In this document: in pieces, positions 5,261 through 48,664 of the stretch
Position numbering within the stretch: the stretch's first letter is position 1
Layout: each line of letters begins with the position of its first letter
Source: Bacteroidales bacterium
Lineage (GTDB): Bacteria > Bacteroidota > Bacteroidia > Bacteroidales > F082
Direction: 5' to 3'
DNA: 64,000 nt
Assembly (NCBI GenBank): GCA_017531225.1
Contig: JAFXLL010000014.1
Span: 45,390-109,389 of the forward strand
Notes under the pieces: generated by a model
Seen by the model: the letters and a program-made list of their open reading frames with translations, nothing else
Databases searched by the model: none
What the model was told of the DNA's origin: nothing
Translations under genes and position numbers: made by a program

Positions 5261-8200
5261 TTATAGATTAATCTTTAAAGATAACATGACCGACCGAGTT
5301 CCTGGATAGGAGGCATATTCCAGACCTTGGGCGTTGCCCGATCCGAGGGTTCCCTCGGGATTGATGTTGTCGGGTAAGGTTTTGTAGAAGTAGAATAGGT
5401 CGCGACCCACCAGCGAGAGGGAGATCTGCTTGAAAAATTTTTGCTTGTCAAGCAATTTACGTGGGAAGTCGTAGGTCAAAGAGATTTCACGCATCTTAAT
5501 CCAAGTGTTGTTGACAATACCTGGGGTGGTGAGGATGTTACCCCAGCCACCGTAGTTGGGCATGTATTTGTAAAGATAATGCACCACGTTTTCGTTTTCA
5601 TGAGCTTCGCCAGTCTCGGTGTTGATGCAATAGCCGGGCAAAACCACGCCATAATTGCCAAGGAACTCTCCGTTTTCGTAATACGGCAGGCCGTTGCCCT
5701 CACGTTCATAGAGCGTCGCGGGACTTTGACCTGTTTGCATGCCAACCACGTAGGAAGCGCAATAGATTTGGCCTCCTAACTTGGCATCCACTAAGGCGTA
5801 GAGCGACCAGTTTTTGTATGAAGCCCTCAGGTTGATACCGCCAGTAACTACAGGAGCGCAGTTACCTACAGGCACACGGTTGGCAGTCTTCAGGTATTCC
5901 GTACCGGTTTCATTGATCAATGGCATGGGATTACCTTTGGCATCGTAGAATGGACCCACTACTGTACCGTCGGCCATAGTGTATTCATACACGTAGTCCC
6001 AACCGTAGATAGTGCCGTATTCGTCGCCTTCTTCTACCGCGATAGCGGGACCGTTAGAGCCCCAGATTTCGGATAGCATATACATGTTGGCGCCAGCCAA
6101 ATCCACGATCTTGTTCTTGTTGCGGGCCAGGTTCAATCCCACTTGTACGCCATAGTCTTTTCCGCTGGTAATGTCGTAGGTCATGATGGCCTCGATACCT
6201 TTGTTGGTCACCACACCAGTGTTGATGGTCACGTTTGATGCTCCTGATGACGGAGCCACTGGCGACGATAGGATCTGATCCCACGAATAGATGTCGTAGT
6301 AGGTGAAGTCCATGTTGAAACGGGCACCTAAGCCTAAGTCGAGACCGACCTCAAAGGCACGCTGGCGCTGGGGTTTCAGCTCCAAGGGAGGCACCGTGGT
6401 GGGAAGTGTTGATGATAACTGATGTCCAAATGAACCCGTCGAATAGGTATAGTTGAGTTGATAAGGATCAGTGTCGCTTGCAGTCTGTGCCCAAGAACCT
6501 CTTAACTTCAGGAAACTGACGATACCCCAGTTCCAGTCCTTGAATGCCGAAGTAGGCACAAAACTCAAGGTTGCGGAAGGATAGAAGTAGCTGTTGTTGT
6601 TGATAGGAAGGGTCGACGACCAGTCGTTACGGCCTGTCACATCCAAAAACAGCCAGTCGCTATAGCTTAAGTTGAGGAAAGCATAGAGCGAATTCACTTG
6701 TTTTTCCCATTTCGACTCGCCGAAATTGATTTCCGTGGCCGACGAGTAGTTATAGATGGTATAAAGGTTGGCATAAGCCCAGGTGCCGGAAGTGGTGTTC
6801 AAACCATCGCGGTAGCCATAGTATTGTTCACCACCGAAAGAGATGCGTCCGTTGAACTTGGATCCGAACATCTTTTCCTTGTGAGCCGTGATCAGGAAGT
6901 CCATATCGCGGGTAAGGCTGGTCGATTTGTTCTTTGAATAATAGCCCCCAGTCATACCATTAGCTTCTGTGGGTTTATTCTTGGTGGTGTAGTTGTCGGC
7001 CGTCCAGTCCAAAGCTACCTTAGCAGAGGCGGTGAGCCAGGGTGTGATATCGTAGAACAACCGTACAGAACCGAACATCTTGTCACGATCGAGGGTCGTG
7101 TTGTTATTGTAGAATGACCAGAATAGGCTGCTGCTGATATATTGGTAAGGATAACCGTCAAAATGGTTCATTGTGCCGTCAGGGTTCTCGTAGGAGGCGG
7201 ATTCAATTCCTTTCCAGCTACGAGGCCAGCTGTAGAGCAAGCCTTTATTGAAGTTACTCTGCGATTCACCGATTTCAGGAGAATTCAGACGGAAGTAGTC
7301 CAAATAAGTGAAGGCTACATCGACTTTGATCTTGTCGGATACATTGAGCAATGATCCTACATTAACTGTGGTTTGGCGCAGGTTGCAGTTGTCGATGATG
7401 GCATCGGTTCTCGAGTCGGTGAACGACACGCGGATGCTTCCAAAGTCGCCTGCATTTTGCAGTGCGATGTTGTTGTTCAAAGTGTGACCATATTTGTAGA
7501 GCATACTGAGGTTGTCGGGCTGTGGTGAATAGTCACGCACTACGCCGTCCCACCAAAGCACGCTTTCGCCGTTCATTGCGGGACCCCAGCTTTGGGCAGC
7601 GCCGTAATAACCGAAGGTGGTGTTGGTAGGTTCACCCGCCGGACCGTCGTCGACGCTGTAAATACCTGGGTATTCATACACCTGGTTTCCATTGTCGTCA
7701 ACCATTCCATCAATGGGGGTGAGGGTTGGCGTGTGGAAGGTGATAGGACCTCCGGCGCCGTATTTGTTTTGGACCGAACGATAGAGATAAGGCTGTGTTA
7801 CCTTATAGCCGACGGAATAGGAGATGCCCAAACCACGTTGTTTGCTACCTTTCTTGGTGGTGATGAGCAACACGCCATTACCGCCTCGTGAGCCGTAAAG
7901 AGCTGCCGCAGTAGGGCCCTTGAGAATGTCGATGTTCTCGATGTCTTCTTGGTTGATGTTGTTGAGGGCAGTACCCCAGTCGCGTCCGCCGCTCCATTCG
8001 GTAATGCCGCCTTCGTTGCTCATCGGTACTCCGTCTACCACAATTAGCGGCTGGTTGTCACCGAAGATGCTATTGTTACCACGGATGACGATACGAGAGG
8101 AGCCGCCGTCGACACCAGTAGGATTGATGATTTGCACACCAGCGGAACGACCGCTAAGAGCGCTAATCACGCTACCCGAACCTGATCGCGCAACTAGGTC

Positions 8201-8587
8201 GCCTCCGATTTCTTCAGTGGCATAGCCGAGTTCTCGTTTTTGACGTTTGATGCCCAAGGCAGTCACCACCACGTCATCCAACATTTGTGCGTCTTGTTCA
8301 AGGGTGACGTTGATTTTGTTGCGGCCGTTCACTGGGATCTCTTGGGGGGTAAAGCCCACAAAGCCGAATACCAGGGTTCCTTTGGGATTTACGTTAATGC
8401 TGTAGTTACCGTCAATGTCGGTGACGGTGCCACCACTGACACCTTTTACGGTGACGTTGACACCAGGGAGCCCCAATCCGTCGTCGCTGGAGATCACTTT
8501 ACCTGTAACCATGATGTTCTGGGCTTTCAAACCCAGAGGAATAAACAACATGGCAAGCAAAAAGAATAGTAAATACTTTTTATTCAT
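5261..8587 (-). CDS. SusC/RagA-family TonB-dependent outer-membrane transporter
   Basis: 1108 aa. Signal peptide, then a carboxypeptidase-regulatory-like N-domain (NIMVTGKVISSDDGLGLPGVNVTVKGVSGGTVTDIDGNYSI). Plug region (VVVTALGIKRQKRELGY, DIENIDILKGPTAAALYGSRGGNGVLLITTKKG). C-terminal beta-barrel ending in ...SLKINL. Confidence 0.93.
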   Translation of the reverse strand: MNKKYLLFFLLAMLFIPLGLKAQNIMVTGKVISSDDGLGLPGVNVTVKGVSGGTVTDIDGNYSINVNPKGTLVFGFVGFTPQEIPVNGRNKINVTLEQDAQMLDDVVVTALGIKRQKRELGYATEEIGGDLVARSGSGSVISALSGRSAGVQIINPTGVDGGSSRIVIRGNNSIFGDNQPLIVVDGVPMSNEGGITEWSGGRDWGTALNNINQEDIENIDILKGPTAAALYGSRGGNGVLLITTKKGSKQRGLGISYSVGYKVTQPYLYRSVQNKYGAGGPITFHTPTLTPIDGMVDDNGNQVYEYPGIYSVDDGPAGEPTNTTFGYYGAAQSWGPAMNGESVLWWDGVVRDYSPQPDNLSMLYKYGHTLNNNIALQNAGDFGSIRVSFTDSRTDAIIDNCNLRQTTVNVGSLLNVSDKIKVDVAFTYLDYFRLNSPEIGESQSNFNKGLLYSWPRSWKGIESASYENPDGTMNHFDGYPYQYISSSLFWSFYNNNTTLDRDKMFGSVRLFYDITPWLTASAKVALDWTADNYTTKNKPTEANGMTGGYYSKNKSTSLTRDMDFLITAHKEKMFGSKFNGRISFGGEQYYGYRDGLNTTSGTWAYANLYTIYNYSSATEINFGESKWEKQVNSLYAFLNLSYSDWLFLDVTGRNDWSSTLPINNNSYFYPSATLSFVPTSAFKDWNWGIVSFLKLRGSWAQTASDTDPYQLNYTYSTGSFGHQLSSTLPTTVPPLELKPQRQRAFEVGLDLGLGARFNMDFTYYDIYSWDQILSSPVAPSSGASNVTINTGVVTNKGIEAIMTYDITSGKDYGVQVGLNLARNKNKIVDLAGANMYMLSEIWGSNGPAIAVEEGDEYGTIYGWDYVYEYTMADGTVVGPFYDAKGNPMPLINETGTEYLKTANRVPVGNCAPVVTGGINLRASYKNWSLYALVDAKLGGQIYCASYVVGMQTGQSPATLYEREGNGLPYYENGEFLGNYGVVLPGYCINTETGEAHENENVVHYLYKYMPNYGGWGNILTTPGIVNNTWIKMREISLTYDFPRKLLDKQKFFKQISLSLVGRDLFYFYKTLPDNINPEGTLGSGNAQGLEYASYPGTRSVMLSLKINL

Positions 8588-8718: not shown

Positions 8719-10251
8719 TTACCTGTATGGATTATACCTTCCGACGGTGGATACGTAAATCTCCACTCGGCGGTTTTTGGCGCGGCCAGATGCGGTGTCG
8801 TTGCCGGCCACGGGATGGTTGTAAGATTCTCCGCTGGTGGTGATGTTGTTAACGCCTTTCTTTTTCAAGTAGTCAGCTACCATTCGGGCACGATTGACGG
8901 CCACAGCCTCGTTTACCTCGGAGGTGCCGGTATTGTCGGCATGGCCGATCACAGTCACTTGACAGGAGCCAATTCCCTTGATTTCTTTAGCCAAGGCATC
9001 AAGTTGCTTGGTATCCTCCTTCGATAGCGTCTTGCTGTCCACATTGGAAAGCGTGTAGGTCTTTACACCTTTGGTGTTGGTGTTTTTCAACATGGAACTG
9101 GTGGAAACGGAATAGTTTGGCGATTCGGTATTTTTAATCAGGCCGCAACCTTGCAGCAGTGCCACCAGCATCAAAATGGTGAGACCATAGGTTATAGTGG
9201 ATTTAGGTCCTTGTAGCGGTGTGCCGCACTCTTCGCAGAAGCGGCTGCCTTCAGTGATTGATGCGCCACAATTGGGGCATACATGTTGTTTCGGTGTTTC
9301 CATAACGGGTTCCTCCTCCTCATCTATGAATATTTCTTTGTTTACGGTTTTTTTGTTTTTCTTATTGAATACAAAGAGTATCAGCGCAATAAGAATGGCT
9401 GCTATGCCGATGACGATAATGTATTTGACCACCGGACTCTTTTCATCATTATCAACCCACTCCTCATAGTCCGCTTCCTCTTCTTCGTCAAGAGTTTCAT
9501 CGTACGAGTCTTCAGTATCTTCATCGTTTTCATAGTCGTCATAGGTTGCTTCGGAAACTTCAGAATCTTCGGCAGATACTTCATCAATGTCTTCAAAACC
9601 AGTGTCTTCAAACGTCTCCCATGCTTCGTTAGATTCCGTCGCTACACTTTCTTCTTCCCAAGTTGATACCTCTTCCAATGGGGTTGTTTCGGTGGATTCG
9701 ATGTCTTGAGAATCATTGGAAGCAGTGTTGGAAGCAGAGGCCACCATTTCGCCGTCCCATGCGTAAGTATAAATGGCTTCCATGCCGTTGCAAGTGTACA
9801 CGATCGTCATTTCCGCACCGCTTGAGGGGGTCTTCGACATCAGGGTCGCAGTCTCAGGTGGGGTTACTTGGTTGCGTCCGGCAGCATCAGTCGCCGGATA
9901 GCCATTCACCGTCACTTTGGCGTATGGTGAATAGTTGAGCCGTGGTCCTTTTTCGGAAAAAACGATACGCACCGAGATATCCTCACCAGGGGCATAGCTC
10001 TTTTGGGGTTCGTTGAATGTGGCCTTGGAGGAATAGACATCCATCTGGGTGCCGTTGGTGACTTTGCGTTCGTATTGGAACACGCCTTTTTTATAGGAAC
10101 AGTCGATACGGACTTTTTGGCCGTTTTCCCAGCGTCCACCGGTGCCGTTCACCTTGGTTCCTATGAGTTTCCAACCATCGGCCCAAGCCATTTGGAGGGC
10201 GCAGCAAAGCATCAGCGCGGTTAAAAGACTTTTTTTCAGATTCAGTTTCAT
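8719..10251 (-). CDS. Mosaic envelope protein: signal peptide, private repeat module, acidic linker, TM, cytoplasmic zinc ribbon, second TM/lipobox-like segment, OmpA peptidoglycan-binding domain
   Basis: 510 aa. Zinc ribbon: CPNCGASITEGSRFCEECG. OmpA motif: VTVIGHADNTGTSEVNEAVAVNRARMVADYLKKKG...GRAKNRRVEIYV. D/E-rich stretch of ~95 aa. Two hydrophobic segments (YIIVIGIAAILIALILFVF; ITYGLTILMLVALLQGCG). Confidence 0.8.
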   Translation of the reverse strand: MKLNLKKSLLTALMLCCALQMAWADGWKLIGTKVNGTGGRWENGQKVRIDCSYKKGVFQYERKVTNGTQMDVYSSKATFNEPQKSYAPGEDISVRIVFSEKGPRLNYSPYAKVTVNGYPATDAAGRNQVTPPETATLMSKTPSSGAEMTIVYTCNGMEAIYTYAWDGEMVASASNTASNDSQDIESTETTPLEEVSTWEEESVATESNEAWETFEDTGFEDIDEVSAEDSEVSEATYDDYENDEDTEDSYDETLDEEEEADYEEWVDNDEKSPVVKYIIVIGIAAILIALILFVFNKKNKKTVNKEIFIDEEEEPVMETPKQHVCPNCGASITEGSRFCEECGTPLQGPKSTITYGLTILMLVALLQGCGLIKNTESPNYSVSTSSMLKNTNTKGVKTYTLSNVDSKTLSKEDTKQLDALAKEIKGIGSCQVTVIGHADNTGTSEVNEAVAVNRARMVADYLKKKGVNNITTSGESYNHPVAGNDTASGRAKNRRVEIYVSTVGRYNPYR

Positions 10252-10268
10252 GGTATATGCTTTCGTTT

Positions 10269-10742
10269 TTAATTTCTTTTGACGCGGGGTTTGGTTTCAT
10301 CCCATGAGCCGTCGGCAGCGGTGCTGTAGCCGTCGAAGGCGATGGTGTCAGGGGCGAGGAAGCCTTGTTCGTCGAAATAAAAGAGCTTGTATTCGGGACG
10401 GGGACCCAGGACCCAGACACGGCAGCGCAGCAGGCCGTCGTCGTAGCGACGATAGACAATGTGGCCGTCAGGAAGTGTATCGAAGCCGCCGTTGGAAAGG
10501 ACGTAGGTATTGGGTGTGTAATCTTCCAAGGCGGCAAGGCTGTCGGGATTTCGGATTTTGAGGCCCCTTGTAACGAAGGCGCCGCCGTCCATGCCCGTGC
10601 GGGCGGTTTCGTCCTCGTAGGCCTCGTCAGGCGTGAGCCAGGGGTCGTTATCGACAGGCGGCTTGGGATGCCAAAGGCCACAAGCCGTGAGCAAGCCAAG
10701 ACCGATGATCGGCAGCATAATGGATATTTTGAGTTTGTTCAT
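10269..10742 (-). CDS. Small lipoprotein, function unknown (GC-rich gene)
   Basis: 157 aa with lipobox LLTAC. It has a 3-nt gap to the upstream gene and a 17-nt gap to the downstream gene. GC is clearly higher than in the flanking genes. The C-terminal YKLFYFDEQGFLAPDTIAFDGYSTAADGSW resembles cell-wall/choline-binding-type aromatic repeats. Confidence 0.7.
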   Translation of the reverse strand: MNKLKISIMLPIIGLGLLTACGLWHPKPPVDNDPWLTPDEAYEDETARTGMDGGAFVTRGLKIRNPDSLAALEDYTPNTYVLSNGGFDTLPDGHIVYRRYDDGLLRCRVWVLGPRPEYKLFYFDEQGFLAPDTIAFDGYSTAADGSWDETKPRVKRN

Positions 10743-10745
10743 TAT

Positions 10746-13700
10746 TTATTCCTCCCATGCATAATTATAAGTGGTGCTTATTTTAGACATACTTCCATAA
10801 ACCTTGATGTATTCTGTTATGAAAAAGCCCACCGCGCCGGGTGTTCCTGGTTTAGATGGGGCGGAACCTTTGGCTACACCCACAACCTTTTTGTTGCTAT
10901 AGGAAGGTTTATCATCCCAATCACCTTCGTATTCGACACAGCCGTCCCATTGGCCTGTTGAAAACACAATGTCACCGTAAGACATGCCTTCTTTACCGCC
11001 TTTGATCTTTGGTTTCTCATTGGTCACCTTCAGGGTGATTTCCTCTCCGGGCATATACACGGATTTGGGCTTTTCGAAGTTGATTTCGCGGTCGCTGATC
11101 ATACCGTCTCTCTCAACATGGGCTGTGTAGTGTCCATTGCTACCCTGAATAGTGATGCCTTTAGCCGAGCCGGTGATCATACCTTGTTCGGTAGAAACTC
11201 CAGTATGGATCAGTTTCCAGTGGCCGCCGGTGACGGGTTTTTCCTTGACGGGCTTGGCTTTTTTGCCGCCGTCCACCCATTCGTAATGATAGGTAATTTT
11301 CAACTCAACGGTGTTGCCGGTGCTGCTGCGCACTGTTTCAATGATTAGGAAGGTGTTTCCAGTCCAGCCATATCCCTTGGTGGGAGCGATCCTGGTTCTA
11401 CAATCTTCACCAGCCGTACCAGTCGTGCCTGGTCCTGTATAGGTAGCACCCTCCTGTTCCCACCCAAAGGAACCTTGATAGCTCGGAACGTCGGTACAGC
11501 CGTAATCAAAGTTAGCCACTGAATGCCCGTGAATTACATTTTTAGCATTTGGTTCATCGGTAGGGGTAATCTTTGTGGCACCATATTGGATTTTTAAACG
11601 GATATTTTCCCCTGGGGTATAAATCTTTTTTGGTCGCTCCGTCTTTATTGTACGCTCGTGGGTGACTTTTATAAGAGGTTTCTTCCAATATTTTTCATAC
11701 CCGCACTCACCATGTACGAGATATACACCATCTTTCCCTTCTATGTAGTTGTTGTAAGTCAGGTTTTTATCGACCCCTTGGGCTGATATTTTACTGTCAT
11801 CCACTTCGGTTTTCACGAGCTGCCAATATCCGCCTTCAGGAACGTTTTCTGTTTCCAATTCTGGTTCCGGTTCCTCTTCGCCTACCCATTCGTAATTATA
11901 CACGAAGGTGACGGTGGCCATCAGGTCGGAGCCTTGTCGTTCTTTGATGGAGTAGGTTTGCGTCAGCGTGAACGATTTGGGGCCGTTCTTTTCCGGATGA
12001 CGGGCTTCGAAGGTAGTGGTACTGCCGCGGGGCCAGTTCACCTTGCCTACCGATGAGCGGCCGTTGTCTATCTTGTCTTTTTTCGACTGCGCGCAGGCGG
12101 CTTGGTCGGAGCTGGTGTTTTTCGCCTCAAATACAAACGGATCACTGACTTTCGTCAGGTAGGGATCATCGGCGATTTCCCAATGGGCTTTGTATTGCTG
12201 TGTGGGAATCCAGAACTTTGGAGGCTCCGTGTAAGTGAGTGTTCCTTCGATGAAAATGTCTTGCACATAGACGCGTCCGTTTTCCTTCGTTTTTTCCTCG
12301 GTGGCGCCCATGCCGGTGAATTCAAGGCTGCGGCCCGTTTTGGCTTCCTGCAGATCGATGCTGCGGTAGTCGCTGCTCACCTCGTCGTCGTTGCTTTGGT
12401 CAACATCGATGGAAGTGTTTTTCATCGTCATCCTACTGCTCACTTGTTTCCAGTAGTTGGTTTCGGGTTCCTTGGTCTGCACCACTTCTTCTTCGGGCTG
12501 GTCGCCTTTGGCGCCCCATTGTGCAGGTTCACCTATGGGCGACACGTAGGTGGTTTGTTCATCGGGCTTGTAGTACCATTGCAGTGAAAGCGTGAAGCTA
12601 TTGCCCTTTTTGCTGCAATCAGGTATTGTCCATGTTGCCTTTTTGCCGAAATTCTTGGGTTCGATTTCGCGGGTGTATTCTTCTCCGTTTTTGTCCTTAT
12701 AGGTCACCACAACGCCGGTGATGAGTTTTTCCTTGGTTAGCGCACGGGCTGGTTTGGGCACGATAAAGGTGATTTTGTCGTCTTTCACTTTGCGGATTTC
12801 TGGGGCCTCAGGTTTAAATAGGGCTACCGCGTAGTAATCGCACAAGGGGCCCTTGGATTGTGACGTAGTGACGACACCTAAATAATATCCGTTGTTTTTT
12901 TTCTTATTCAAAACCAAGTTCCCATTAACGTCTTTTCCGTTATAATCAGTCTTGGGGTTTCCCTCATAATAGAGAGTAGGTTTTACATTGGTCAAATGAT
13001 GCATTATGACATACTCTTGAAACTTGTAATCGGACATATAGAACGACACGTAGGGATTGTCACCTTTATGTTTTTTGTCCTTCGGCTTGCACACGACAAA
13101 TATGTGTGCAATACTGGAAGGGAGCCCTTTTCCTATCTCCAAATGGAAAGTGTTTACCGTGTAGTCCTGGGGTTTCGACAACTTGTCTATTTTTTCAATC
13201 GGGTTGGTAGGTTTTAAAAGTATATTTTTTGTAGCCACGTCCTCAGGGCATTTATAGTGTGTTTGACTATCTATGATTACCGGCAAGTATTTTTCTCCAA
13301 AATACCTCCATCCTTTGTTGAATTGCTCGCCATCAATACCCAAGGAGAACTTTATCCAGCCGATCCATCCACCGTCTGTAGAGTATTCAGCTTCTTTGCC
13401 AAGCTTGGACATGTGAGGCCCATGCAGAGAATAGCTATCCATGAAAGGCTTCATGGTCACAGACTCTTTCCCAACACCTTCCCGAATACCTTCTATGGCA
13501 TCACCATAAGTGTATTCTTCAGGCAAAGGGGAGAATATAGATCGTTCCTTTATCCTTTCAGGTCTAAGTTTCGTGATATGTGTATTGAAAGGGTAGCCGA
13601 ATATATGCTTTTCGTCACGGTCGGTTATCAATTTGCCTTCGGCATTCGTGGAAGTCGGGTCTTGTTCCGTAATGATGCCGTCTTTATACCACTTTTTGGC

Positions 13701-15014
13701 AGCATCCCTTTCCAGGACGGTGGCCGTTGCTTCGGCTGCTGCCGAACCCATTTTGGTAAGGGTGTAATAACTTTGCTGTCTGACGTGGAACAATTCATGG
13801 ACAAGGGTAACTTGAGTGTGGTCAGAGCTCTCTTTGTCTATTTTTGCTTTGGAATAATTGAGGACAACACAATGTCCATCAACCCAAAGCGATGCTGCAG
13901 CACCGTATGTCTCCGATTTTACTGAAGGTTCTTCCAACAAAAAGAAGGGTATTTCCTTATTCAGTTTGTGAAGTCCAATACTGTCCAAATATCGGTTTGC
14001 CCGAATGATTTGGTTTTTGATGGTCTCTATGCTTTTCGGGAGTTGGGCCGCAGGATCGGCGTTCAATTCTTTCATGACAGCATCGTCTTTAATCAATTTT
14101 TTTAAGATGCTATTATAGCCGATTTTCTCCTTGATTGCCCGAACCTGTTTTCCTGGAAACCAGTCTTCCCAAAAATAGGGTTTGATATGCTCCTTCTCAA
14201 GTTCTTTTTGGACACGGTCTTCAAAATCTTTTTTGGCCTGCTTTTCCAACTTGGCATATTGCTTCTGATACTTTTCTCTCCGTTTTGCAAATTCAGTATA
14301 GCCATCAGGATTCTCTGTATCCCGAAACCGGAAATGCAACACAAAATTTCCACTTTTATCGGAAACAGGAAGCACAAAAGCCGTATTATCAAAATAATAA
14401 TAATCAATAATAGTGTGAAATTCTGAAGCAACTATCTTGGCCAAAAACTTCCAATAGGGCTTCACTTGATGATTAATCAAGTATAACGGATCTCCCACAC
14501 AATTGATTACGATTGAAACAAAAGAGTTCTGATTGCTCTTGAAAGAGAGTTTTCCGTCGGCTAACTGTGTGTTGTATCGGTAAGCTCCCATTTTCTTTCC
14601 GTTTTTGGCAACACGGTACACGCATATATTCTCTTGCAGGTTTTCAGGAATGCCCATCTTGTTCAGGTCTATCACCACATCGTAGTCGCCAGGGAGAAAT
14701 TCGCCTGGTTTCATGCCTGCATCGAGGTCAAAGACCATAAAAGGTGTTAGATCTTCTGTTTCCAACAGTTCTACTACCTTGTCATAAGTCTTGTCGTCTA
14801 CGGGTGTCAGCTTGAACTCCCGGTTCTTATCCAAGGCGTTCTTGGGCGCGCTGATGGTGATGCCTTCGACAGGCTCTATCTTGAAAGGCTTGCTGTGCCC
14901 GACAACGATTTGTTCTTTCTTGCTGTTGGATGAGGTTTCGCTCAGAATCAAATAGCCTGCGGCTCCGAGGATGACGGTCGCGATGAGGATCCATTTGAGG
15001 AGGTTCTTGTTCAT
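10746..15014 (-). CDS. Giant N-terminally membrane-anchored protein with HELFHxRQQ zincin-like motif and three C-terminal private repeat modules
   Basis: ORF-track ORF is 10746..15062. I prefer the internal start MNKNLLKWILIATVILGAAGYLILSE (ATG at 15014), which matches the paralog N-terminus and removes the overlap with the upstream gene. HELFH lies at 13785-13799, with a conserved Glu 18 residues after the second His. Confidence 0.8.
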   Translation of the reverse strand: MNKNLLKWILIATVILGAAGYLILSETSSNSKKEQIVVGHSKPFKIEPVEGITISAPKNALDKNREFKLTPVDDKTYDKVVELLETEDLTPFMVFDLDAGMKPGEFLPGDYDVVIDLNKMGIPENLQENICVYRVAKNGKKMGAYRYNTQLADGKLSFKSNQNSFVSIVINCVGDPLYLINHQVKPYWKFLAKIVASEFHTIIDYYYFDNTAFVLPVSDKSGNFVLHFRFRDTENPDGYTEFAKRREKYQKQYAKLEKQAKKDFEDRVQKELEKEHIKPYFWEDWFPGKQVRAIKEKIGYNSILKKLIKDDAVMKELNADPAAQLPKSIETIKNQIIRANRYLDSIGLHKLNKEIPFFLLEEPSVKSETYGAAASLWVDGHCVVLNYSKAKIDKESSDHTQVTLVHELFHVRQQSYYTLTKMGSAAAEATATVLERDAAKKWYKDGIITEQDPTSTNAEGKLITDRDEKHIFGYPFNTHITKLRPERIKERSIFSPLPEEYTYGDAIEGIREGVGKESVTMKPFMDSYSLHGPHMSKLGKEAEYSTDGGWIGWIKFSLGIDGEQFNKGWRYFGEKYLPVIIDSQTHYKCPEDVATKNILLKPTNPIEKIDKLSKPQDYTVNTFHLEIGKGLPSSIAHIFVVCKPKDKKHKGDNPYVSFYMSDYKFQEYVIMHHLTNVKPTLYYEGNPKTDYNGKDVNGNLVLNKKKNNGYYLGVVTTSQSKGPLCDYYAVALFKPEAPEIRKVKDDKITFIVPKPARALTKEKLITGVVVTYKDKNGEEYTREIEPKNFGKKATWTIPDCSKKGNSFTLSLQWYYKPDEQTTYVSPIGEPAQWGAKGDQPEEEVVQTKEPETNYWKQVSSRMTMKNTSIDVDQSNDDEVSSDYRSIDLQEAKTGRSLEFTGMGATEEKTKENGRVYVQDIFIEGTLTYTEPPKFWIPTQQYKAHWEIADDPYLTKVSDPFVFEAKNTSSDQAACAQSKKDKIDNGRSSVGKVNWPRGSTTTFEARHPEKNGPKSFTLTQTYSIKERQGSDLMATVTFVYNYEWVGEEEPEPELETENVPEGGYWQLVKTEVDDSKISAQGVDKNLTYNNYIEGKDGVYLVHGECGYEKYWKKPLIKVTHERTIKTERPKKIYTPGENIRLKIQYGATKITPTDEPNAKNVIHGHSVANFDYGCTDVPSYQGSFGWEQEGATYTGPGTTGTAGEDCRTRIAPTKGYGWTGNTFLIIETVRSSTGNTVELKITYHYEWVDGGKKAKPVKEKPVTGGHWKLIHTGVSTEQGMITGSAKGITIQGSNGHYTAHVERDGMISDREINFEKPKSVYMPGEEITLKVTNEKPKIKGGKEGMSYGDIVFSTGQWDGCVEYEGDWDDKPSYSNKKVVGVAKGSAPSKPGTPGAVGFFITEYIKVYGSMSKISTTYNYAWEE

Positions 15015-15034
15015 GATGTTTATCGGTTGAGTTG

Positions 15035-18000
15035 TTACTTTTCTGTTTTGGGAGACACCCATTCGTAGGTATAAACTTTTTGGAAATAACAGTTTTCTGA
15101 GATGATGACTCGCTGTATGATTTTGAAACCATCTGGATAGAATAGGTCATGATCGGGAATGGAGAAAGCGCTTCCTTCATGACTCCTCTTGCGTTCATCA
15201 AATTCATAATGATTGAGGGCCCTTAACCGTTTTGGGAATTCAGTTTCAAAATCCAACTTTTCTAGACTAAAGCTTCCCGTTCCCCATAGATACGGCGTTG
15301 AATTGTCGCCCACACCCCTGTTTTTTGTAGTTATGGTCGCTTCGCTTTCTGTCATGGAGGGCCCTGGTTCATTTTCCTTATAGTATTGTTTTGGAGTCTC
15401 GAAGGTGTAGTCGCGGTCAACGGTATAAATCACCCCTCTGCCCACTTCACGATTGATACCGTCACTCCCTTTTTCGGTAATTCCCCCCACGATGTCCATG
15501 TGCAGATGACACTGTCCTGCACCACCACTAATGACATGGTTGGACCCGTTTTTATCCTTATAGGTCGTATGTGAGTCATCCGCTTCGGTCTTGACCAGTT
15601 GCCAATACCCGCCTTCTGGAGCGGTTTCCTCTTCCTTCTCTTCTTTTTCAGGCTCGCCCTCTACCCATTCATAGTAATAGGTGATGTAAGCGACAGCGTT
15701 AAGGCCGGAGCCTCCGCTGATGGTGTATTTCTGCTCGATGGTGAACTCTTTGGGGTCGTTTTTCCCTGGTTTGTTGGTCTTGTAGACGGTCTTCACCTGA
15801 TGGAGCCACTTGGCATCAGCGGTCTTGGAGTTCATTTCCGTCACCTTGTCTTTGCCCTTTTGGCAAGCTTTGGGTTCGGAGGTGGTGTTTTCCACGGAGA
15901 AGGTGAAGGGGTGATTCATCTTGTCAACGAAGGGATCTTGCTCGGTGTACCACTCGCAAGTATAGTTGGTGTTGGCGGGCCATTGCTTGGGCGGCTCGGT
16001 GAAGCTGACGTAGCCGTCTAAGCAAGTCTCCGGTTTGAAGAGGGTCTTACCGTTCTCTTTGACTTTCCTGGAGGCCATGCCCGTGAATTCAGCTTCGTTT
16101 GCACCGCTCGCGAACTTCATCGTGATGCCGCGCACATCATGAGTGGCGAAACCATCGCTGTCGAGTTCGCTTTCATCTATTTTCTGCCCTTCCACCTTGC
16201 CGGTGGCACTCACCTGCTTCCAGTAGCCTTCCTTCTCGTCAATCTTGACGGGTTCTTCTTTCTTTTTCTCCTCGACTTTCATCGCACCATGCACGACAGG
16301 CTTGGATTCGGGGGAAATGTAGGTGGTCTCCGCATCTGGCTTGAAGTACCAGTGTAGGGTTATTTTAAAGTCCTTTTCTTGGATTCCCGGCAGATTGTTG
16401 ATGCTGTATTTCTTGCCGAAATACTTGGGTTCAATGTCATAGGTCTTGGTGCTCCCGTCGGCAAACTTGAGGGTCGCCACAGCTCCGCTCAGCAATTTTT
16501 CCTTCATGATTTTGGTTGGAGCCTTGGGCATGATGAAACCGAGTGCGTCTTTTTTGGCTGTGAGTTTTTTGGGCGCATCGGGTGCGTAGAGGGCAACGAT
16601 GAAATAGTCGTTGTTCTCTCCCTGTGACATGGTCGTTGCTATGGCTGCAAGTGGGAATGTGCTGTGTTTCGTACAATATAGGTTTGGCTTCAGCGGAACC
16701 AAGTGGTCACTTGCATCTACCGTTCCCGAAAAATCATAGGGGTAAAGATAAAACTTCAAATAGGGATTCCAAGCCTGTTGGCCTTTTCTGTTTGAAGGGC
16801 TTACAAACACATTGGCGGGCTCGGTGTGGAAACCTTTGCCGGGTGTCCTTTCCGATTTCAAGTCTATTCTAAAGGTGTTGATAGTATAGTCTTTCGGCTT
16901 CTCGAGTTTTTCCAATTTCGAGATGGGATGGTCTTTGGAGAGCTCTATGATGGTTGTGGCCGCGTCCTTCGGAGTGGTTCCCGCCATTTGGCTATTGTAA
17001 ATCCTGTTCAGGTTGGTTTCTCCAAAATAGAACCAACCGTCGTCAAATTGTTGGTCATCGATGTCAAGAGACTTTTTTATCCAACCTTTCCAACCTGAAG
17101 TGTGGGGTCCGAACAGAGAATAATTGGCGGCAAAGAAGTACATGGTCATGAATTCCTTGTTGGACCGTTTCCGGATGCCCTCAATGGCATAAGACAAGGA
17201 ATAAGCGGCATCGACAGCGTCGCCTGACGGAACGAGCGACATGGCTTTTTCCAGTGGGTATGCAAAGACATAATTCTGGTCACGGTCAGTGCATATTTTC
17301 CTTGCGCCTTGCACAGTGGAGGCATCTGTCTTGAAGACTTTGTTTTTGTACCACTGAATGGCGGCATCGTCTTCCAATGTCGCAGCCGTCGATTCCGCTG
17401 GTGCGGAATTCATCGCGACAAGCGCATAATAACTTTGCTGCCGGGCATGAAAAAGCTCATGAACGATGGTACACTGGAACTTTTCCCATAGTTCGTCGGT
17501 TTGACTGTGTTTATAATTCAGCAAAAGGAAGGCATTCCCGCAGAAATAATACTTTTGCGCCACCCCACAGATTTTGTCGCCTATAACGGAACCATTCACT
17601 AAGTAGATTGGCATTTCGTAGTTAAACGGATGAAGCCCTATGCTGTTCAGGTATTCATTAGCCCTGATAACCTGTTCCTTAATTTTCTGGATACTTGGCG
17701 GGAGGCTGCCTGCTGGGTCAGTATTCAAACGGGTCAAAACCGTGTCTTTTTTGATTAAGTTCTCGAGGATTTCTTCCTTGGAGATGCTTTCCCTGATGGC
17801 TTCGACTTGTTTTTTGGAGAATAGTTTTTGCCAGAAGGAGTATCCCTTTTGCTGATCCTTCACCTCCTGATCCACTTTTGCCTCATATTTGGCATTCGCC
17901 AGTTTTTCCAACTCCTCCAAACGATCAAAAGCCGCTTTCTCGTTGTCTATGAAAGCTTGGTAGCCATCGGGGCGTTCGGTGTCGGAAAAACGGAAATGAA

Positions 18001-18688
18001 GGACAAAATCACCACTGGTGTCTTGGATTGGAACAGCCAAAGAAGTGGAGTTACCGGAAAAGAACTTTCTTATGGAAGTGGTGCCATTAGAGGCTGGTGC
18101 ATACTCAAAAATGCGTCTCCCAACTTGAATAGCCATGGTAATTCCGCCCAAGGTCGCAAGTGCTCCGATGATAATGGAATTTTGATTGCTCTTGAATGAG
18201 AGTTTTCCATGGTCAAGATGCGTTTTGTATCGGAGAAATTCAAATGATTTGTCAGAGTCCACGGCACGATACACGACAAATTGGTCTTGGAGCTCTCTGG
18301 GTATGCCCATCTTATCCAAGTCCCACACGACATCGACATCTCCCGGCAAATGCTCATCGGATTGTAGTCCAGCATCGAATTCGAAGACAAAAAGCGGCTT
18401 GATGTACGTGTTGTCGTAAGCCTTTGTCACCTTTTCGTAGGTTTTGTCATCCACCGCCGTGAGCTTAAACTCCCTGTCCTTATCCAAGGCGTTCTTGGGC
18501 GCACTGATGGTGATGCCTTCAACGGGCACAATCTTGAAAGGCTTGCTGTGGCCTACTACGATTTGCTCTTTTTTGCCTTTAGGGCGCGAACTCTTCTTGC
18601 CTGAGGGCATTTCGCTAAGAATCAAATAAGCGGCGGCACCGAGGATGACAACCGCGATGAGAATCCATTTGAGGAGATTTCGGTTCAT
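15035..18688 (-). CDS. Giant N-terminally membrane-anchored protein with HELFHxRQQ zincin-like motif and two C-terminal private repeat modules (paralog of 10746..15014)
   Basis: 1217 aa. N-terminus is MNRNLLKWILIAVVILGAAAYLILSE. HELFH lies at 17447-17461. It is collinear with its paralog through the N-terminal ~700 aa. Confidence 0.8.
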   Translation of the reverse strand: MNRNLLKWILIAVVILGAAAYLILSEMPSGKKSSRPKGKKEQIVVGHSKPFKIVPVEGITISAPKNALDKDREFKLTAVDDKTYEKVTKAYDNTYIKPLFVFEFDAGLQSDEHLPGDVDVVWDLDKMGIPRELQDQFVVYRAVDSDKSFEFLRYKTHLDHGKLSFKSNQNSIIIGALATLGGITMAIQVGRRIFEYAPASNGTTSIRKFFSGNSTSLAVPIQDTSGDFVLHFRFSDTERPDGYQAFIDNEKAAFDRLEELEKLANAKYEAKVDQEVKDQQKGYSFWQKLFSKKQVEAIRESISKEEILENLIKKDTVLTRLNTDPAGSLPPSIQKIKEQVIRANEYLNSIGLHPFNYEMPIYLVNGSVIGDKICGVAQKYYFCGNAFLLLNYKHSQTDELWEKFQCTIVHELFHARQQSYYALVAMNSAPAESTAATLEDDAAIQWYKNKVFKTDASTVQGARKICTDRDQNYVFAYPLEKAMSLVPSGDAVDAAYSLSYAIEGIRKRSNKEFMTMYFFAANYSLFGPHTSGWKGWIKKSLDIDDQQFDDGWFYFGETNLNRIYNSQMAGTTPKDAATTIIELSKDHPISKLEKLEKPKDYTINTFRIDLKSERTPGKGFHTEPANVFVSPSNRKGQQAWNPYLKFYLYPYDFSGTVDASDHLVPLKPNLYCTKHSTFPLAAIATTMSQGENNDYFIVALYAPDAPKKLTAKKDALGFIMPKAPTKIMKEKLLSGAVATLKFADGSTKTYDIEPKYFGKKYSINNLPGIQEKDFKITLHWYFKPDAETTYISPESKPVVHGAMKVEEKKKEEPVKIDEKEGYWKQVSATGKVEGQKIDESELDSDGFATHDVRGITMKFASGANEAEFTGMASRKVKENGKTLFKPETCLDGYVSFTEPPKQWPANTNYTCEWYTEQDPFVDKMNHPFTFSVENTTSEPKACQKGKDKVTEMNSKTADAKWLHQVKTVYKTNKPGKNDPKEFTIEQKYTISGGSGLNAVAYITYYYEWVEGEPEKEEKEEETAPEGGYWQLVKTEADDSHTTYKDKNGSNHVISGGAGQCHLHMDIVGGITEKGSDGINREVGRGVIYTVDRDYTFETPKQYYKENEPGPSMTESEATITTKNRGVGDNSTPYLWGTGSFSLEKLDFETEFPKRLRALNHYEFDERKRSHEGSAFSIPDHDLFYPDGFKIIQRVIISENCYFQKVYTYEWVSPKTEK

Positions 18689-18695
18689 AAGACCA

Positions 18696-19037
18696 TTATT
18701 TCGTTAACAACGCAATTAAAATAAAGATGGCAAGAATGATGGCAAAAGCGATCAACTTGCCCTTGCTGATGAATGTGATTTGCGGTTTTCCGATTTCAAT
18801 TTTTGGTTTGAATTGCTTCCAATCAATGCCATTGGTTGGTTTTTCATCGGCAGCATCAACAAACTCATGCAGGGTTTGCTTTTTCGGTTGTTTTGGTTGC
18901 TGAGGTTGTTGAGGTTGTTTGTACTCTTGTTGGGGTTTAGGTTGTTGTGTTGGTACAGCAACTTGGGCTCCACAATTGGTGCAAAAACGTACGCCCTCTT
19001 GTAACGGGGCTCCGCATTGATTACAAAACTTAGGCAT
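18696..19037 (-). CDS. Small zinc-ribbon protein with P/Q-rich linker and C-terminal transmembrane anchor
   Basis: I use the internal start MPKFCNQCGAPLQEGVRFCTNCGAQV (ATG at 19037). The 216-aa track ORF would extend through the promoter region. The C-terminal LIAFAIILAIFILIALL is a TM segment. There is a 7-nt gap to the next gene. Confidence 0.7.
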   Translation of the reverse strand: MPKFCNQCGAPLQEGVRFCTNCGAQVAVPTQQPKPQQEYKQPQQPQQPKQPKKQTLHEFVDAADEKPTNGIDWKQFKPKIEIGKPQITFISKGKLIAFAIILAIFILIALLTK

Positions 19038-19199: not shown

Positions 19200-20843
19200 A
19201 TGAAACGACACTTGCTTTCTTTTGTTTGGCTCCTGTTGCTGTGTTCCTGCCAACAGCAACCCGAAACGCTTTTTGTGGGTGACATTCCCTTTGTTCCAAT
19301 GGAAACGGAATCGTTGCCTGAAATGAACACGCCTCGCGCGGGCCATGCCTTAGTGTGGGCCGATGACCATATCTTAGTCGTGGGAGGACATACCACAGGA
19401 TTTGTGCCCACCCCAACGGCAGAGTATTATAAAAACGGAAAATGGCATCAGATACTCACGCTCTATCTGCACGACACCCCCTTTGCCCTTGTGCTGAAAG
19501 ACGGTGATGTATTGATAGGCGGTGGTTATGAAAAGGATTTCGGGGTAGGGCAGACTTGGGGAGTGGAATGTTATCATCCCGCCACACACAGCTTTGCGCC
19601 AAAATCCATCATGGACCGAAAACGGGCACATGCCAGTGCTTTGGAGTTGGAGCATGGCGAGATTGTGATCAGCGGAAACTGGTACACCACCGATGTCACC
19701 GAAATCTATATTGATTCCGTGGAAGCCCAATGGATTGACACGGCAGCGGACAATCGCAGCTACCCCTTTCTCCTACCTGTCACCAACGACAACGTATGGA
19801 TTATTGGTGGCACTTACGGGAGTTATGGAATGAGCACCCAAAATGTTGTTGACCAGACCAAAGGAGAGCCTTTTTCGGTGGATTTGTTGGCAGCATGGCT
19901 TCCCCAAACTCCAACGGACCGCAACGTACAGGCCGATGCCTATCGCTTAGCGGAACACACCTTCCTGATACCCGCTATAAACGCCGAAAGACAATGGGCT
20001 CCCATGCTTGTTGACAGCACAGGCTTCTCGCTGTTGTCCATGGAACAAGCGTTGCCAAAAGAGGGACCCTGGGGTTCCATCCAATATACGGGCTCGTTTT
20101 GGACGGATCCCGAAACAGGAACCGCATGGCTCATGGGTTTGGATGGGCAGCGTGTTTATTTGGCTGAAATCGCCTATCAACCAGCGCTTCAAGGCGGAAA
20201 GGCAAAGCTTTCCATGCATTACACACGGCCTTTGGAAGACCTACCAAGCGATCCCTATGAATTGCTGCTTCCCGACGGTAGTTTTGTGATCGTTGGTGGC
20301 AGGAATTGCTCCAATTTCATAAGCAGTGCTACGGTGTATGCCTTTTATCCCAATACACAACCCCAACAAAACAGGGTTTTGTTTGCCATGATCATAGGCT
20401 TGATGGTCTTAATCGGTTTGTGTTTGGCCATTGTAGTTAAAAAGAGAAAACATCAGAAAGAGACAACTCCCAAGGTCAAAGAGGAAGATCTGCCGATACA
20501 GGAAAAGACAGACTTGGGAGAAAAACTCAAGGCATTGATGGAAGAAAAGCAGCTCTTCCGGAACAAGGATTTGCGAATTGCCGACGTGGCCGCTGCCCTG
20601 GGAACCAACATCACCTACCTTTCGGCTTGCCTGAACGGTGAGTTGAACACGACCTTCCCCGCCTTTGTGACCGGTTACCGTATCCGTTATGCCCAAGAAT
20701 TGATGCGCAAAGTGCCCACGATGCGTCTTTCGCAGGTGGCAAAGGAGGCGGGTTTCACCAATGAAAAGACTTTTTTACGCACCTTCAAGACCTCGTGTGG
20801 AGTTACCCCTTCGGAATGGAAGCAGGAACACGGCGGTGATTAG
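19200..20843 (+). CDS. Transmembrane one-component regulator: lipoprotein signal, Kelch-like beta-propeller, TM helix, C-terminal AraC-type HTH
   Basis: 547 aa with lipobox LLLLCSC. Repeated hhh(V/I)GG motifs (HILVVGGH, VLIGGGY, IVISGNWY, VWIIGGTY, FVIVGGRN). TM segment VLFAMIIGLMVLIGLCLAIVV. AraC HTH: IADVAAALGTNITYLSACL...AGFTNEKTFLRTFKTSCGVTPSEW. Confidence 0.8.
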   Translation: MKRHLLSFVWLLLLCSCQQQPETLFVGDIPFVPMETESLPEMNTPRAGHALVWADDHILVVGGHTTGFVPTPTAEYYKNGKWHQILTLYLHDTPFALVLKDGDVLIGGGYEKDFGVGQTWGVECYHPATHSFAPKSIMDRKRAHASALELEHGEIVISGNWYTTDVTEIYIDSVEAQWIDTAADNRSYPFLLPVTNDNVWIIGGTYGSYGMSTQNVVDQTKGEPFSVDLLAAWLPQTPTDRNVQADAYRLAEHTFLIPAINAERQWAPMLVDSTGFSLLSMEQALPKEGPWGSIQYTGSFWTDPETGTAWLMGLDGQRVYLAEIAYQPALQGGKAKLSMHYTRPLEDLPSDPYELLLPDGSFVIVGGRNCSNFISSATVYAFYPNTQPQQNRVLFAMIIGLMVLIGLCLAIVVKKRKHQKETTPKVKEEDLPIQEKTDLGEKLKALMEEKQLFRNKDLRIADVAAALGTNITYLSACLNGELNTTFPAFVTGYRIRYAQELMRKVPTMRLSQVAKEAGFTNEKTFLRTFKTSCGVTPSEWKQEHGGD

Positions 20844-20909: not shown

Positions 20910-21653
20910 TTATTGTTTATTTGGTGCCCAAGCTACAAAAGGCGGGTTAGGATAGTCTTTTTTGTCGTATTCCAAAGGTTTCCCATCGCTGATTTTTAGA
21001 ACTTTTCCGCCGGCGGCGGTAAGTATGGCATCAGCGGCGGCGGTGTCCCATTCTTTGGTCTTACTGTAGCAGACGTATACATCGGCGGTGCCTTCAGCTA
21101 AACGGGCAAATTTCAAGCTGCTGCCCTGGGTGTCGATCACCAAATCGGGATGTTCTGGCCGCAACACCTTATCAATATATTCATCTACTTCGGGAGTTCT
21201 ATGGGAACGACTGACTAAAACGGTGAAAGGTGAGAGTTGAGAGTTGAAAGGTGAGAGGTTTGCTTGTAATAATTTGCCGTTTTCTGCTGCCCATAACTTA
21301 TCCAGCACTGGTGCATAGATGACGCCGATAACAGGTCGTTTGTTCTCAATCAAGGCGATATTTACTGTGAATTCATCATTGCGTTTCACGAATTCGGCGG
21401 TGCCATCCAAGGGATCCACCAACCAATAACGCCCAAACTGGGAACGATCAGACGGCAAGTCCTCCTCGCTGACAAAAGGGATCCCCGTCGGCTTCAAACA
21501 CTCCTTAATTATATTACTCGCCCGAAGGTCAGCTTGGGTCACTGGCGACTGGTCATCTTTCGTGTAAACCTCAAAAGGATGGGCATAAATTTCCATAATG
21601 GCTCGACCCGCCTTGCGAGCCGCTTCAATAGCCGTTAAAACCAATTTGTTCAT
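20910..21653 (-). CDS. cysQ: Inositol-monophosphatase-family protein, probably 3'(2'),5'-bisphosphate nucleotidase
   Basis: I use the internal start MNKLVLTAIEAARKAG (ATG at 21653); the longer track ORF would overlap topA. Motifs present: FVSEE, WLVDPLDGT, WDTAAADAIL. Confidence 0.72.
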   Translation of the reverse strand: MNKLVLTAIEAARKAGRAIMEIYAHPFEVYTKDDQSPVTQADLRASNIIKECLKPTGIPFVSEEDLPSDRSQFGRYWLVDPLDGTAEFVKRNDEFTVNIALIENKRPVIGVIYAPVLDKLWAAENGKLLQANLSPFNSQLSPFTVLVSRSHRTPEVDEYIDKVLRPEHPDLVIDTQGSSLKFARLAEGTADVYVCYSKTKEWDTAAADAILTAAGGKVLKISDGKPLEYDKKDYPNPPFVAWAPNKQ

Positions 21654-48647: not shown

Positions 48648-48664
48648 CATAAAACGATTAGACA

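Follow-up and report, generated by a model that had tools for sequence, protein, structure and literature searches.

An unnamed beta-rich module shared by three proteins of a Bacteroidales operon, exchanged as a cassette and with a possible binding role on putative peptidases

Introduction

When neighboring genes encode large proteins that carry the same repeated module, and that module resembles no domain one can name, what is it, where else does it occur, and what might it do for the cell? This question is raised by an operon on the minus strand of a 64,000-nucleotide stretch of DNA from a Bacteroidales bacterium (GenBank assembly GCA_017531225.1, contig JAFXLL010000014.1, positions 45,390 to 109,389; hereafter the window). 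A reading made from the sequence alone had described six modules in three proteins of this operon, namely two in a protein of 1217 amino acids (aa) that we call giant 1 (modules B1 and B2), three in a 1422-aa protein, giant 2 (A1, A2 and A3), and one (C1) in a mosaic protein with an OmpA-like domain, P510, and had taken them for a single repeat private to the operon. We conclude with high confidence that all six are instances of a single self-folding, all-beta domain of about 150-210 residues that had not been named before. Below, the evidence for this domain, its distribution, its exchange between proteins, and its possible role are considered in turn; related loci and homologous proteins from other assemblies are referred to by labels beginning with L and P, respectively.

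Results

Six modules share three motifs in a fixed order

All six minus-strand intervals (Table 1) translate exactly to the peptides and motifs that had been quoted for them, with the start, central and end motifs standing in that order in every module and, as also described, with E/K/P-rich linkers between modules. The central motif is degenerate in B2 (ETPKQYYKENE). When the whole window is translated in all six frames (60,803 aa), seven matches to the start pattern [GYH]W[KQ][LQ][VI] result, six of them at module starts, compared with a mean of 0.16 (maximum 2) in shuffled sequence; the end pattern Y.Y[EA]W occurs six times, every one at a module end (shuffle mean 0.115, maximum 1), and the strict central pattern P[KQ]..Y.PGE.I three times, versus none in the shuffles. 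At the DNA level, the end motif leaves a trace in the form of a ~22-nucleotide repeat (CCCATTCGTAAT.ATA) found at all six module ends with 73-86% identity. Long inter-module DNA repeats, considered as substrates for recombination within the genome, were set aside, as this short end-motif repeat is the only one to recur. The seventh occurrence of the start motif, SYWKQI(G), lies after the signal peptide of a ~950-aa open reading frame (ORF; 48662-51520, plus strand) and is followed by leucine-rich repeats; no module profile matches this protein, which was rejected as a further carrier, and its SYWKQIG is probably a coincidence.

Might the resemblance among the modules be a chance or compositional artifact of proteins that are rich in beta structure and in E and K? 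Comparisons of A1 or B1 with A3, B2 and C1, which give z values of 0.3-1.7, would be in keeping with such an artifact. It is refuted, however, by motif counts about 40-50 times the shuffled expectation, with the motifs in fixed order, by profile scores that far exceed those of 2000 shuffles, and by distant Clostridial proteins that keep the same signature; we give this explanation virtually no chance.

The modules form three related subtypes

A common domain is indeed present in all six modules, as the sequence-only reading had held, but they do not form one uniform repeat: by sequence comparison they fall into three subtypes, type I (A1 and B1), type II (A2, A3 and B2) and type C (C1). Pairwise comparison joins A1 to B1 (E 2e-37), A2 to A3 (E 3e-10) and to B2 (E 3e-6), and A2 or A3 to C1 (E about 1e-3, z about 4), and finds no significant similarity between A1 or B1 and the remaining modules.

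The subtypes are drawn together by profile methods. A hidden Markov model (HMM) of the module, which had been suggested earlier as a check, was built from 27 type II modules only, and it recovers types I and C above the best of 2000 shuffles (8.2 bits). With this HMM, the 18 type I representatives all fall between 10 and 29 bits (B1 25.0, A1 17.7), C1 scores 17.6 bits, and C1 together with its nearer relatives spans 12-29 bits; the farthest members of the C family, which comprises 39 clusters of C1 homologues, score in the shuffle range. The degenerate B2 is matched with a domain E-value of 1.9e-50. Profile-profile comparison with hhalign connects type I to type II with 94.7% probability over the C-terminal 47 columns, and type II to the C family with 91.4% probability (E 9e-7) over the start and central motifs, and gives no match between type I and the C family. 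An HMM of the C family, for its part, matches an A3-like module at E 7e-7.

No named domain accounts for the module

The module had not been recognized as any named domain, and our searches of Pfam, NCBIfam and the PDB by sequence, and of structure collections with Foldseek, likewise yield no clean match to a common named family; such a match had been singled out as the outcome that would tell against a private domain. Pfam returns nothing at E<=1 for the module regions of the three proteins except sub-threshold Arrestin_C and A2M_BRD matches, no family in more than one of the 27 type II modules (best E 0.066), and no consistent match for the five operon proteins. NCBIfam gives no matches to the modules, and neither giant 2 nor a profile of 21 family sequences finds any PDB sequence at E<=10.

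An AlphaFold (AF2) model of A2 made from the 27-sequence alignment is all-beta, with a predicted local distance difference test score (pLDDT) of 77.9 and a predicted template modeling (TM) score (pTM) of 0.77. It has five long strands over residues 3-65, followed by the central motif, and two long closing strands (residues 161-187) that bear GFxIxE and YxYEWV. Column entropy is lowest at the central motif and in the strands that open and close the module, and entropy and gaps peak at residues 90-160. The module is built of conserved framework strands (G-x-W-K-L-V, PKxxYxPGExI and Y-x-Y-E-W-V) with a hypervariable, indel-rich insert between its center and its last two strands. Taking a significant Foldseek E-value together with TM>0.5 as the mark of a solved fold, the A2 model has no counterpart in the PDB (best E 1e-2, TMq <=0.21) or in BFVD (best E 8e-3, TMq <=0.26), and its matches to serpins, lipocalins and herpesvirus UL112 were dismissed as noise (E>=0.008, TM at most about 0.26).

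Rather than a new fold, the module could be a strongly diverged Ig-type sandwich of the MG2, A2M or arrestin-like kind, a fold of seven to eight strands that opens with an xYxPGExV strand; PKxxYxPGExI would be this typical first strand. The sub-threshold Pfam matches of giant 2 do fall on the central motif (Arrestin_C, E 0.062, aa 1139-1159; A2M_BRD, E 0.15, aa 1329-1370), weak matches to Arrestin_N, Arrestin_C, MG2 and Big_2 each occur in one of the 27 modules, and a distant match of the module, P0126, has both Arrestin_C and MG2 matches. None of these attains its family cutoff or recurs in more than one of the 27 modules, however, which leaves isolated, sub-threshold matches to the central motif. 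In addition, no Ig-like or MG match is present in the Foldseek search of the A2 model against the PDB (best E 0.01), and the confident part of that model places five long N-terminal strands before the motif rather than a sandwich starting there. We consider a diverged sandwich of this type distinctly unlikely.

The domain is found in gut and rumen anaerobes

When 1.84 billion representative proteins were searched exhaustively with a profile, 40 matched at E<=1e-3; they come from rumen and gut Bacteroidales and, in other architectures, from Clostridia. Carriers other than the giants include proteins of 650-1390 aa in which the module directly follows an N-terminal signal peptide, and proteins of 700-800 aa that have it C-terminally, two of these beginning with a zinc ribbon; two named clusters of such non-giant carriers derive from metagenome-assembled genomes (MAGs) of Ruminiclostridium and Lachnospiraceae. 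Distant Clostridial members retain GYWK…, PGE and Y.YEWV.

Within the 64-kb window, module HMMs run on all ORFs confine the module to three proteins, and there the earlier claim that it is restricted to co-operonic proteins stands. Beyond the window the claim is only partly right: C-type and giant-type carriers adjoin in eight distinct locus types (listed below), but C-type proteins also occur at four loci that have no giant (L004, L005, L039 and L040), and the Clostridial carriers have unrelated architectures. The domain is rare and apparently confined to gut and rumen anaerobes, judging from the proteins recovered, but it is not private to this operon.

Type II modules are exchanged as whole cassettes

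Comparison of giant 2 with its homologues reveals a mosaic. Relative to giant 2, P0005 is 48% identical over the N-terminal 840 aa, 98% over A1, 32% over A2 and 100% over A3; the corresponding values are 100%, 96%, 28% and 39% for P0003, and 82%, 93%, 97% and 39% for P0002. Copies of A3 that are 100% identical are carried by giants that match at only 38-51% over the N-terminal 840 aa, and other homologues finish with unrelated 155-215-aa cassettes in which the module motifs are missing.

The robust case of exchange, and the only comparison that involves long MAG contigs, is that of the window with L007 (MAG CAMYVD010000002.1, a 134-kb contig) by blastn. The DNA of the two is 94% identical from window position 21000 down to 11783, which lies 17 codons into A2 and just past its start motif; the remainder of A2 and all of A3, to the stop codon, have no DNA homology to the segment that takes their place in L007 (positions 13280-14451 there), and identity resumes at 91.7% from window position 10742 onward. 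Since homology stops just past the A2 start motif, the conserved start and end motifs coincide with the boundaries of exchange. From these alignments we conclude with high confidence that type II modules are exchanged as whole cassettes at module boundaries.

Two metagenomic proteins display further arrangements. In P0116 (85 aa), the signal sequence of the 157-aa lipoprotein encoded downstream of the giants is joined to the C-terminal third of an A3-like module, apparently as the result of a deletion. P0109 (573 aa) resembles P510 in layout except that its OmpA part is replaced by a type II module, which it thus combines with a C-type one. These two layouts suggest that rearrangement is ongoing at the locus.

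The giants have variable C-terminal domains, as polymorphic toxins do, and one could argue that the operon encodes a polymorphic effector or toxin system in which the swappable cassettes are delivered effectors, the ZU5-like domain of the giants is a releasing autopeptidase, and the lipoprotein is an immunity protein. Several features are shared with such systems: a C-terminal polymorphism produced by recombination, an N-terminal ZU5-like domain on a large multidomain envelope protein, as in large polymorphic toxins and surface proteins (PMC3482391), and a small conserved gene directly downstream. Unlike toxin cassettes, however, the modules share one beta framework and match no toxin family (a lone Pfam Ntox22 match, E 0.13, appears in one of the 27), and type II modules occur internally as well as at the C-terminus. 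Neither RHS, type VI secretion system nor other dedicated secretion or delivery markers were found in the window operon and the related loci examined. The lipoprotein gene, moreover, has 90-94% DNA identity in L006 and L011 while the terminal cassette upstream of it differs, and because it does not co-vary with the cassette we rejected it as a cassette-specific immunity protein. A toxin system of this kind appears highly unlikely.

The giants are putative membrane-anchored metallopeptidases

In the giants, the modules stand at the end of a long and constant order of parts, consisting of a transmembrane anchor, a ZU5-like domain, a coiled coil, an HExxH…E motif, two FnIII-like domains, one type I module and then zero to two type II modules or unrelated cassettes. 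Each giant has one strongly hydrophobic N-terminal transmembrane helix, to which giant 1 adds a weaker hydrophobic segment (aa 171-189). Because homologues (P0055, P0061 and a 1281-aa protein of L009) have a zinc ribbon fused ahead of this helix, we infer an N-in, C-out topology in which the ectodomain, modules included, would be extracytoplasmic.

Both giants contain HELFH with a Glu 18 residues downstream, a feature to which the sequence-only reading had not drawn attention, and H422, E423, H426 and E444 of giant 2 (numbered on a 1438-aa ORF; see below) are invariant in alignments of 21 and of 52 family members. A model of aa 30-868 of giant 2 (pLDDT 82.6, pTM 0.82), in which residue 1 is aa 30 of the 1438-aa ORF, comprises, in its own numbering, an N-terminal beta domain (31-157), long helices, a three-stranded sheet leading to the HExxH helix and then the helix of the invariant Glu (381-404 and 411-431), a helical subdomain, and two beta-sandwiches (583-820). 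The sheet and two helices follow the gluzincin order, and the HExxH motif with a Glu on the following helix is kept across the family. Motif invariance and the modeled order of secondary structure suggest that the giants are putative gluzincin metallopeptidases.

With Foldseek, a ZU5 beta-fold is recovered in the carriers: the model aligns with ankyrin ZU5A-ZU5B (3ud2, 3ud1) at E 3.7e-4 to 7e-4 and probability 1.00, over 150-157 columns with a root-mean-square deviation of about 6.2 Å, the aligned model residues not being reported by the tool. Tandem FnIII domains are matched as well, and Pfam detects no ZU5 domain in the carriers. Presumably, the modeled N-terminal beta domain (about 14500-14900, minus strand; aa about 50-190) gives rise to the ZU5 match and the two sandwiches to the FnIII match. 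An invariant G-(H)-S (G55, S57) at the start of the ZU5-like domain, just behind the transmembrane anchor, might be where the protein cleaves itself to release the ectodomain. Zhang et al. (2012; PMC3482391) describe large surface proteins of bacteria that carry ZU5 domains N-terminally and contain both enzymatic and adhesion domains, and the architecture of the giants, with a ZU5-like domain at the N-terminus of a large multidomain protein, fits this description. Full-length relatives of the giants come from Bacteroidales MAGs only, several of them labeled as rumen or ruminant foregut samples, and the first ~500 residues (beta domain and HExxH region) occur also in Lachnospiraceae, Ruminococcus and other Clostridia.

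C-type modules keep company with OmpA-family and zinc-ribbon proteins

P510 consists of a signal peptide, C1, an acidic linker, a first transmembrane helix, a basic stretch with a zinc ribbon, a second transmembrane helix and an OmpA-like domain. The C-terminal domain is a member of the OmpA-like family by Pfam, and NCBIfam models for OmpA, Pal and YiaD, along with TssL and MotB-type models, match it too. Among PADLOC defence models run on the operon proteins, just this domain is matched (ZorB/MotB). P510 has two hydrophobic helices, with positive-inside residues after the first, and both C1 and the OmpA domain are predicted to be periplasmic.

Fusions of the P510 type also occur in L001, L002, L006 and L007. 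Elsewhere, C1 homologues are proteins of 250-300 aa with a signal peptide, the module, a charged linker and a transmembrane helix, and the gene for such a protein lies beside an OmpA-family gene in every context examined and usually near a zinc-ribbon protein as well. Since genes for a zinc-ribbon protein, a C-module protein with a transmembrane helix, and an OmpA lipoprotein adjoin elsewhere, P510 can be regarded as a Rosetta-stone fusion of the three, and its internal lipobox-like segment, LLQGC, reads as a relic of the signal sequence of an OmpA lipoprotein, now serving as the second transmembrane helix.

Does C1 then bind the modules of the giants? Homotypic docking was, alongside a common ligand, the first idea put forward for this operon, and in it C1 on P510 would bind the giants' modules, for example by beta-strand pairing, to form a wall-tethered protease complex. 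C-type and giant-type carriers adjoin in eight distinct locus types (the window, L006, L007, L008, L011, L013, L041 and L042), both module types share one polypeptide in P0109, and the module is predicted to face the same side of the membrane in every carrier. On the other hand, L006 and L007 preserve C1 at 99% identity, and the counterparts of A2 and A3 there reach at most 34%. Because C1 is constant while type II modules are replaced, any pairing of C1 would have to involve the conserved framework or type I, and specific pairing with the variable type II modules is disfavored by these comparisons. Furthermore, C-type proteins accompany OmpA and zinc-ribbon genes at the four loci that have no giant. 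Docking seems unlikely to us, if still deserving of serious consideration.

Organization of the operon and its surroundings

The coordinates of the modules, the genes and the related layouts are collected in Table 1. The same operon recurs in several independent assemblies: giant 1 is found in 10 contigs, and giant 2 is 100% identical to P0001, a 1422-aa protein annotated as 'MAG: hypothetical protein IKM74_09890 [Bacteroidales bacterium]'. Two gene starts call for comment. The 113-aa length of the first gene product, which matches Pfam Zn_Ribbon_1 (E 1.5e-8) and has a transmembrane helix at its C-terminus, is that called in independent assemblies, the mechanical ORF of the same gene running to 19346. 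The mechanical ORF of giant 2 begins 16 codons upstream, reaching 15062 (1438 aa) and overlapping the end of giant 1; the ATG at 15014 (1422 aa) was preferred on the basis of the NCBI annotation and of the homologous 5' ends of the two giants (repeat D2, from 15014 and 18688). Scans of Pfam and NCBIfam give no family assignment for the 157-aa lipoprotein.

The divergent gene at the head of the operon encodes a protein with a C-terminal AraC-type helix-turn-helix, which is a likely regulator. Homologous ORFs are present upstream of the operon in L006-L009, L011 and L013, and the L006 orthologue has a faint Kelch match (PF01344). The island between the conserved flanks of the operon varies in gene content.

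After P510 and on the same strand are a gene for a SusC-like TonB-dependent receptor (5261-8587, minus strand) and, further downstream, a SusD-like gene. SusC/SusD-like genes follow P510 also in L001, L006 and L007 and are absent from L008, L011 and L042, and adjacency of the operon to a polysaccharide utilization locus is therefore not conserved. L006 (10001-19885), a syntenic locus from a related MAG, has a single giant rather than two, and extra genes for proteins of 210, 160 and 868 aa sit there between the lipoprotein gene and the P510 orthologue.

Table 1. Modules, genes and related gene layouts (coordinates are positions in the window).
Feature	Coordinates	Strand	Description
Module A1	11835..12458	(-)	Type I, 208 aa; NYWKQV … TEPPKFW … YNYEWV, then EEEPEPE linker
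Module A2	11229..11834	(-)	Type II, 202 aa; GGYWQLV … ERPKKIYTPGENIRLKI … YHYEWV, then K/P-rich linker
Module A3	10749..11228	(-)	Type II, 160 aa; GGHWKLI … FEKPKSVYMPGEEITLKV … YNYAWEE; C-terminal cassette of giant 2
Module B1	15614..16228	(-)	Type I, 205 aa; GYWKQV … TEPPKQW … YYYEWV, then E/K-rich linker
Module B2	15038..15613	(-)	Type II, 192 aa; GGYWQLV … ETPKQYYKENE … YTYEWV; C-terminal cassette of giant 1
Module C1	9742..10179	(-)	Type C, 146 aa; DGWKLIG … FNEPQKSYAPGEDISVRI … YTYAWDG; begins at the mature N-terminus after AWA
Segment without DNA homology to L007	10743..11783	(-)	A2 beyond the start motif, plus A3 as far as the stop codon; cassette replacement
113-aa protein	18696..19037	(-)	Cytoplasmic zinc ribbon, Q/P-rich linker, C-terminal transmembrane helix; first gene of the operon
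Giant 1 (1217 aa)	15035..18688	(-)	Transmembrane anchor, ZU5-like, coiled coil, HExxH…E, two FnIII-like, B1, B2
Giant 1 HELFH	17447..17461	(-)	aa 410-414; putative zinc-binding, catalytic site
Giant 2 (1422 aa)	10746..15014	(-)	Architecture as giant 1; modules A1, A2, A3
Giant 2 HELFH and Glu 18 residues downstream	13731..13799	(-)	H422, E423, H426, E444 (1438-aa numbering); gluzincin-like motif
Lipoprotein (157 aa)	10269..10742	(-)	LLTAC lipobox; conserved partner downstream of the giants
P510 mosaic protein	8719..10251	(-)	Carries module C1
P510 zinc ribbon	9214..9279	(-)	aa 325-346; Pfam Zn_Ribbon_1 E 1.2e-8; predicted cytoplasmic, between transmembrane helices
P510 OmpA-like domain	8770..9042	(-)	aa 404-494; PF00691 E 6e-14, 52.6 bits vs cutoff 27.2
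Divergent 547-aa protein	19200..20843	(+)	C-terminal AraC-type helix-turn-helix (PF12833)
L004, L005, L039, L040			[small ORF; Zn-ribbon protein in L039/L040][C-module]<[OmpA]; no giant
L041			[giant][DUF2207_C protein][C-module]<[OmpA]; giant present
L042			[OmpA][giant][C-module]; giant present

Discussion

What is new here is the domain family; its manner of use, as an accessory or variable part of modular envelope proteins, is of a known kind. Like CBM-like, PKD and PPC-like accessory modules, the domain described here is autonomous and beta-rich, with a length of about 150-200 aa, and follows FnIII-like spacers in a C-terminal tandem that closes a large enzyme-like ectodomain, with E/K/P-rich linkers that recall the charged or proline-rich linkers of those proteins. 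It differs from them in that none of those families matches it by sequence or by fold, and in its additional presence on a non-enzymatic protein that is linked to OmpA and a zinc ribbon. By analogy with accessory modules we propose, with low confidence, that the module is a non-catalytic binding or targeting domain. The modules would place the putative peptidase on an envelope or extracellular ligand, recombination at conserved boundaries would swap whole modules and so alter specificity, and the constant C1 copy may tether the same kind of ligand, or framework, to a partner anchored in the cell wall. Taken as a whole, the reading of an unnamed, cassette-exchanged domain with a non-catalytic binding or targeting role on putative peptidase giants is one for which we consider the balance to be even.

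The systems to which the carriers can be likened are instructive in both their similarities and their differences. With gluzincin metallopeptidases, including the putative metalloproteases of the NCBIfam MXAN_6640 family, the giants have in common the HExxH motif with a Glu 18 residues downstream and the order of three strands and two helices, and they have a weak match to NCBIfam NF045524 at the motif; this likeness belongs to the carrier protein and not to the module. P510, in turn, resembles OmpA, Pal and MotB anchors in its C-terminal domain, and it departs from them in joining this domain to the module through two transmembrane helices and a cytoplasmic zinc ribbon, parts that are encoded by separate neighboring genes elsewhere.

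Several points weigh against the reading proposed here. The link between types I and C is indirect, running through type II. The A2 model is of low confidence at residues 95-155 (pLDDT 53-70), and the missing fold match may partly reflect the quality of this model. Part of the mosaicism of the giants comes from short-read metagenome assemblies, which are possibly chimeric. As for the peptidase, the match to NF045524 (MXAN_6640_HExxH) is far under the cutoff (E 0.001, 18.7 bits against 140) and appears in two of 21 giants, no PDB sequence match to a peptidase was obtained, and no metallopeptidase is among the top 50 Foldseek matches of the giant 2 N-terminal model, where FnIII and ZU5 beta-domain matches dominate; peptidase status is consequently drawn from the motif and its geometry. 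Finally, the only line of argument that leads to a binding role for the modules is their likeness to accessory modules.

It is tempting to go further and to speculate that the operon represents a new envelope system of rumen anaerobes, in which a tethered and possibly self-releasing ZU5-like metallopeptidase is retargeted by recombinational swapping of recognition cassettes whose fold has no solved relative, with the peptidoglycan-anchored partner and its constant module copy acting as a docking site or co-receptor. Such a system would follow the logic of polymorphic toxins or of phage tail-fibre mosaics by a distinct mechanism. We regard this proposal as rather unlikely; if true, however, the system would represent diversifying recognition of competitors, phage, or host or dietary polymers. 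Our search of the literature found no paper mentioning MXAN_6640 and none relevant on shuffled C-terminal domains of Bacteroidales metalloproteases.

The more immediate significance lies in the domain itself. Its diagnostic signature, GxWKL…PKxxYxPGExI…YxYEW, defines a new family that neither Pfam nor NCBIfam contains and for which Foldseek finds no structural relative in the PDB, and it could serve to annotate hundreds of 'hypothetical' giant proteins in rumen Bacteroidales and Clostridia. The three-gene fusion in P510 offers a testable link between the module, a cytoplasmic zinc ribbon and peptidoglycan anchoring, and the modules are a possible source of new binding scaffolds. If the modules do set target specificity, then these giants would provide a tractable case of recombination-driven retargeting in gut anaerobes.

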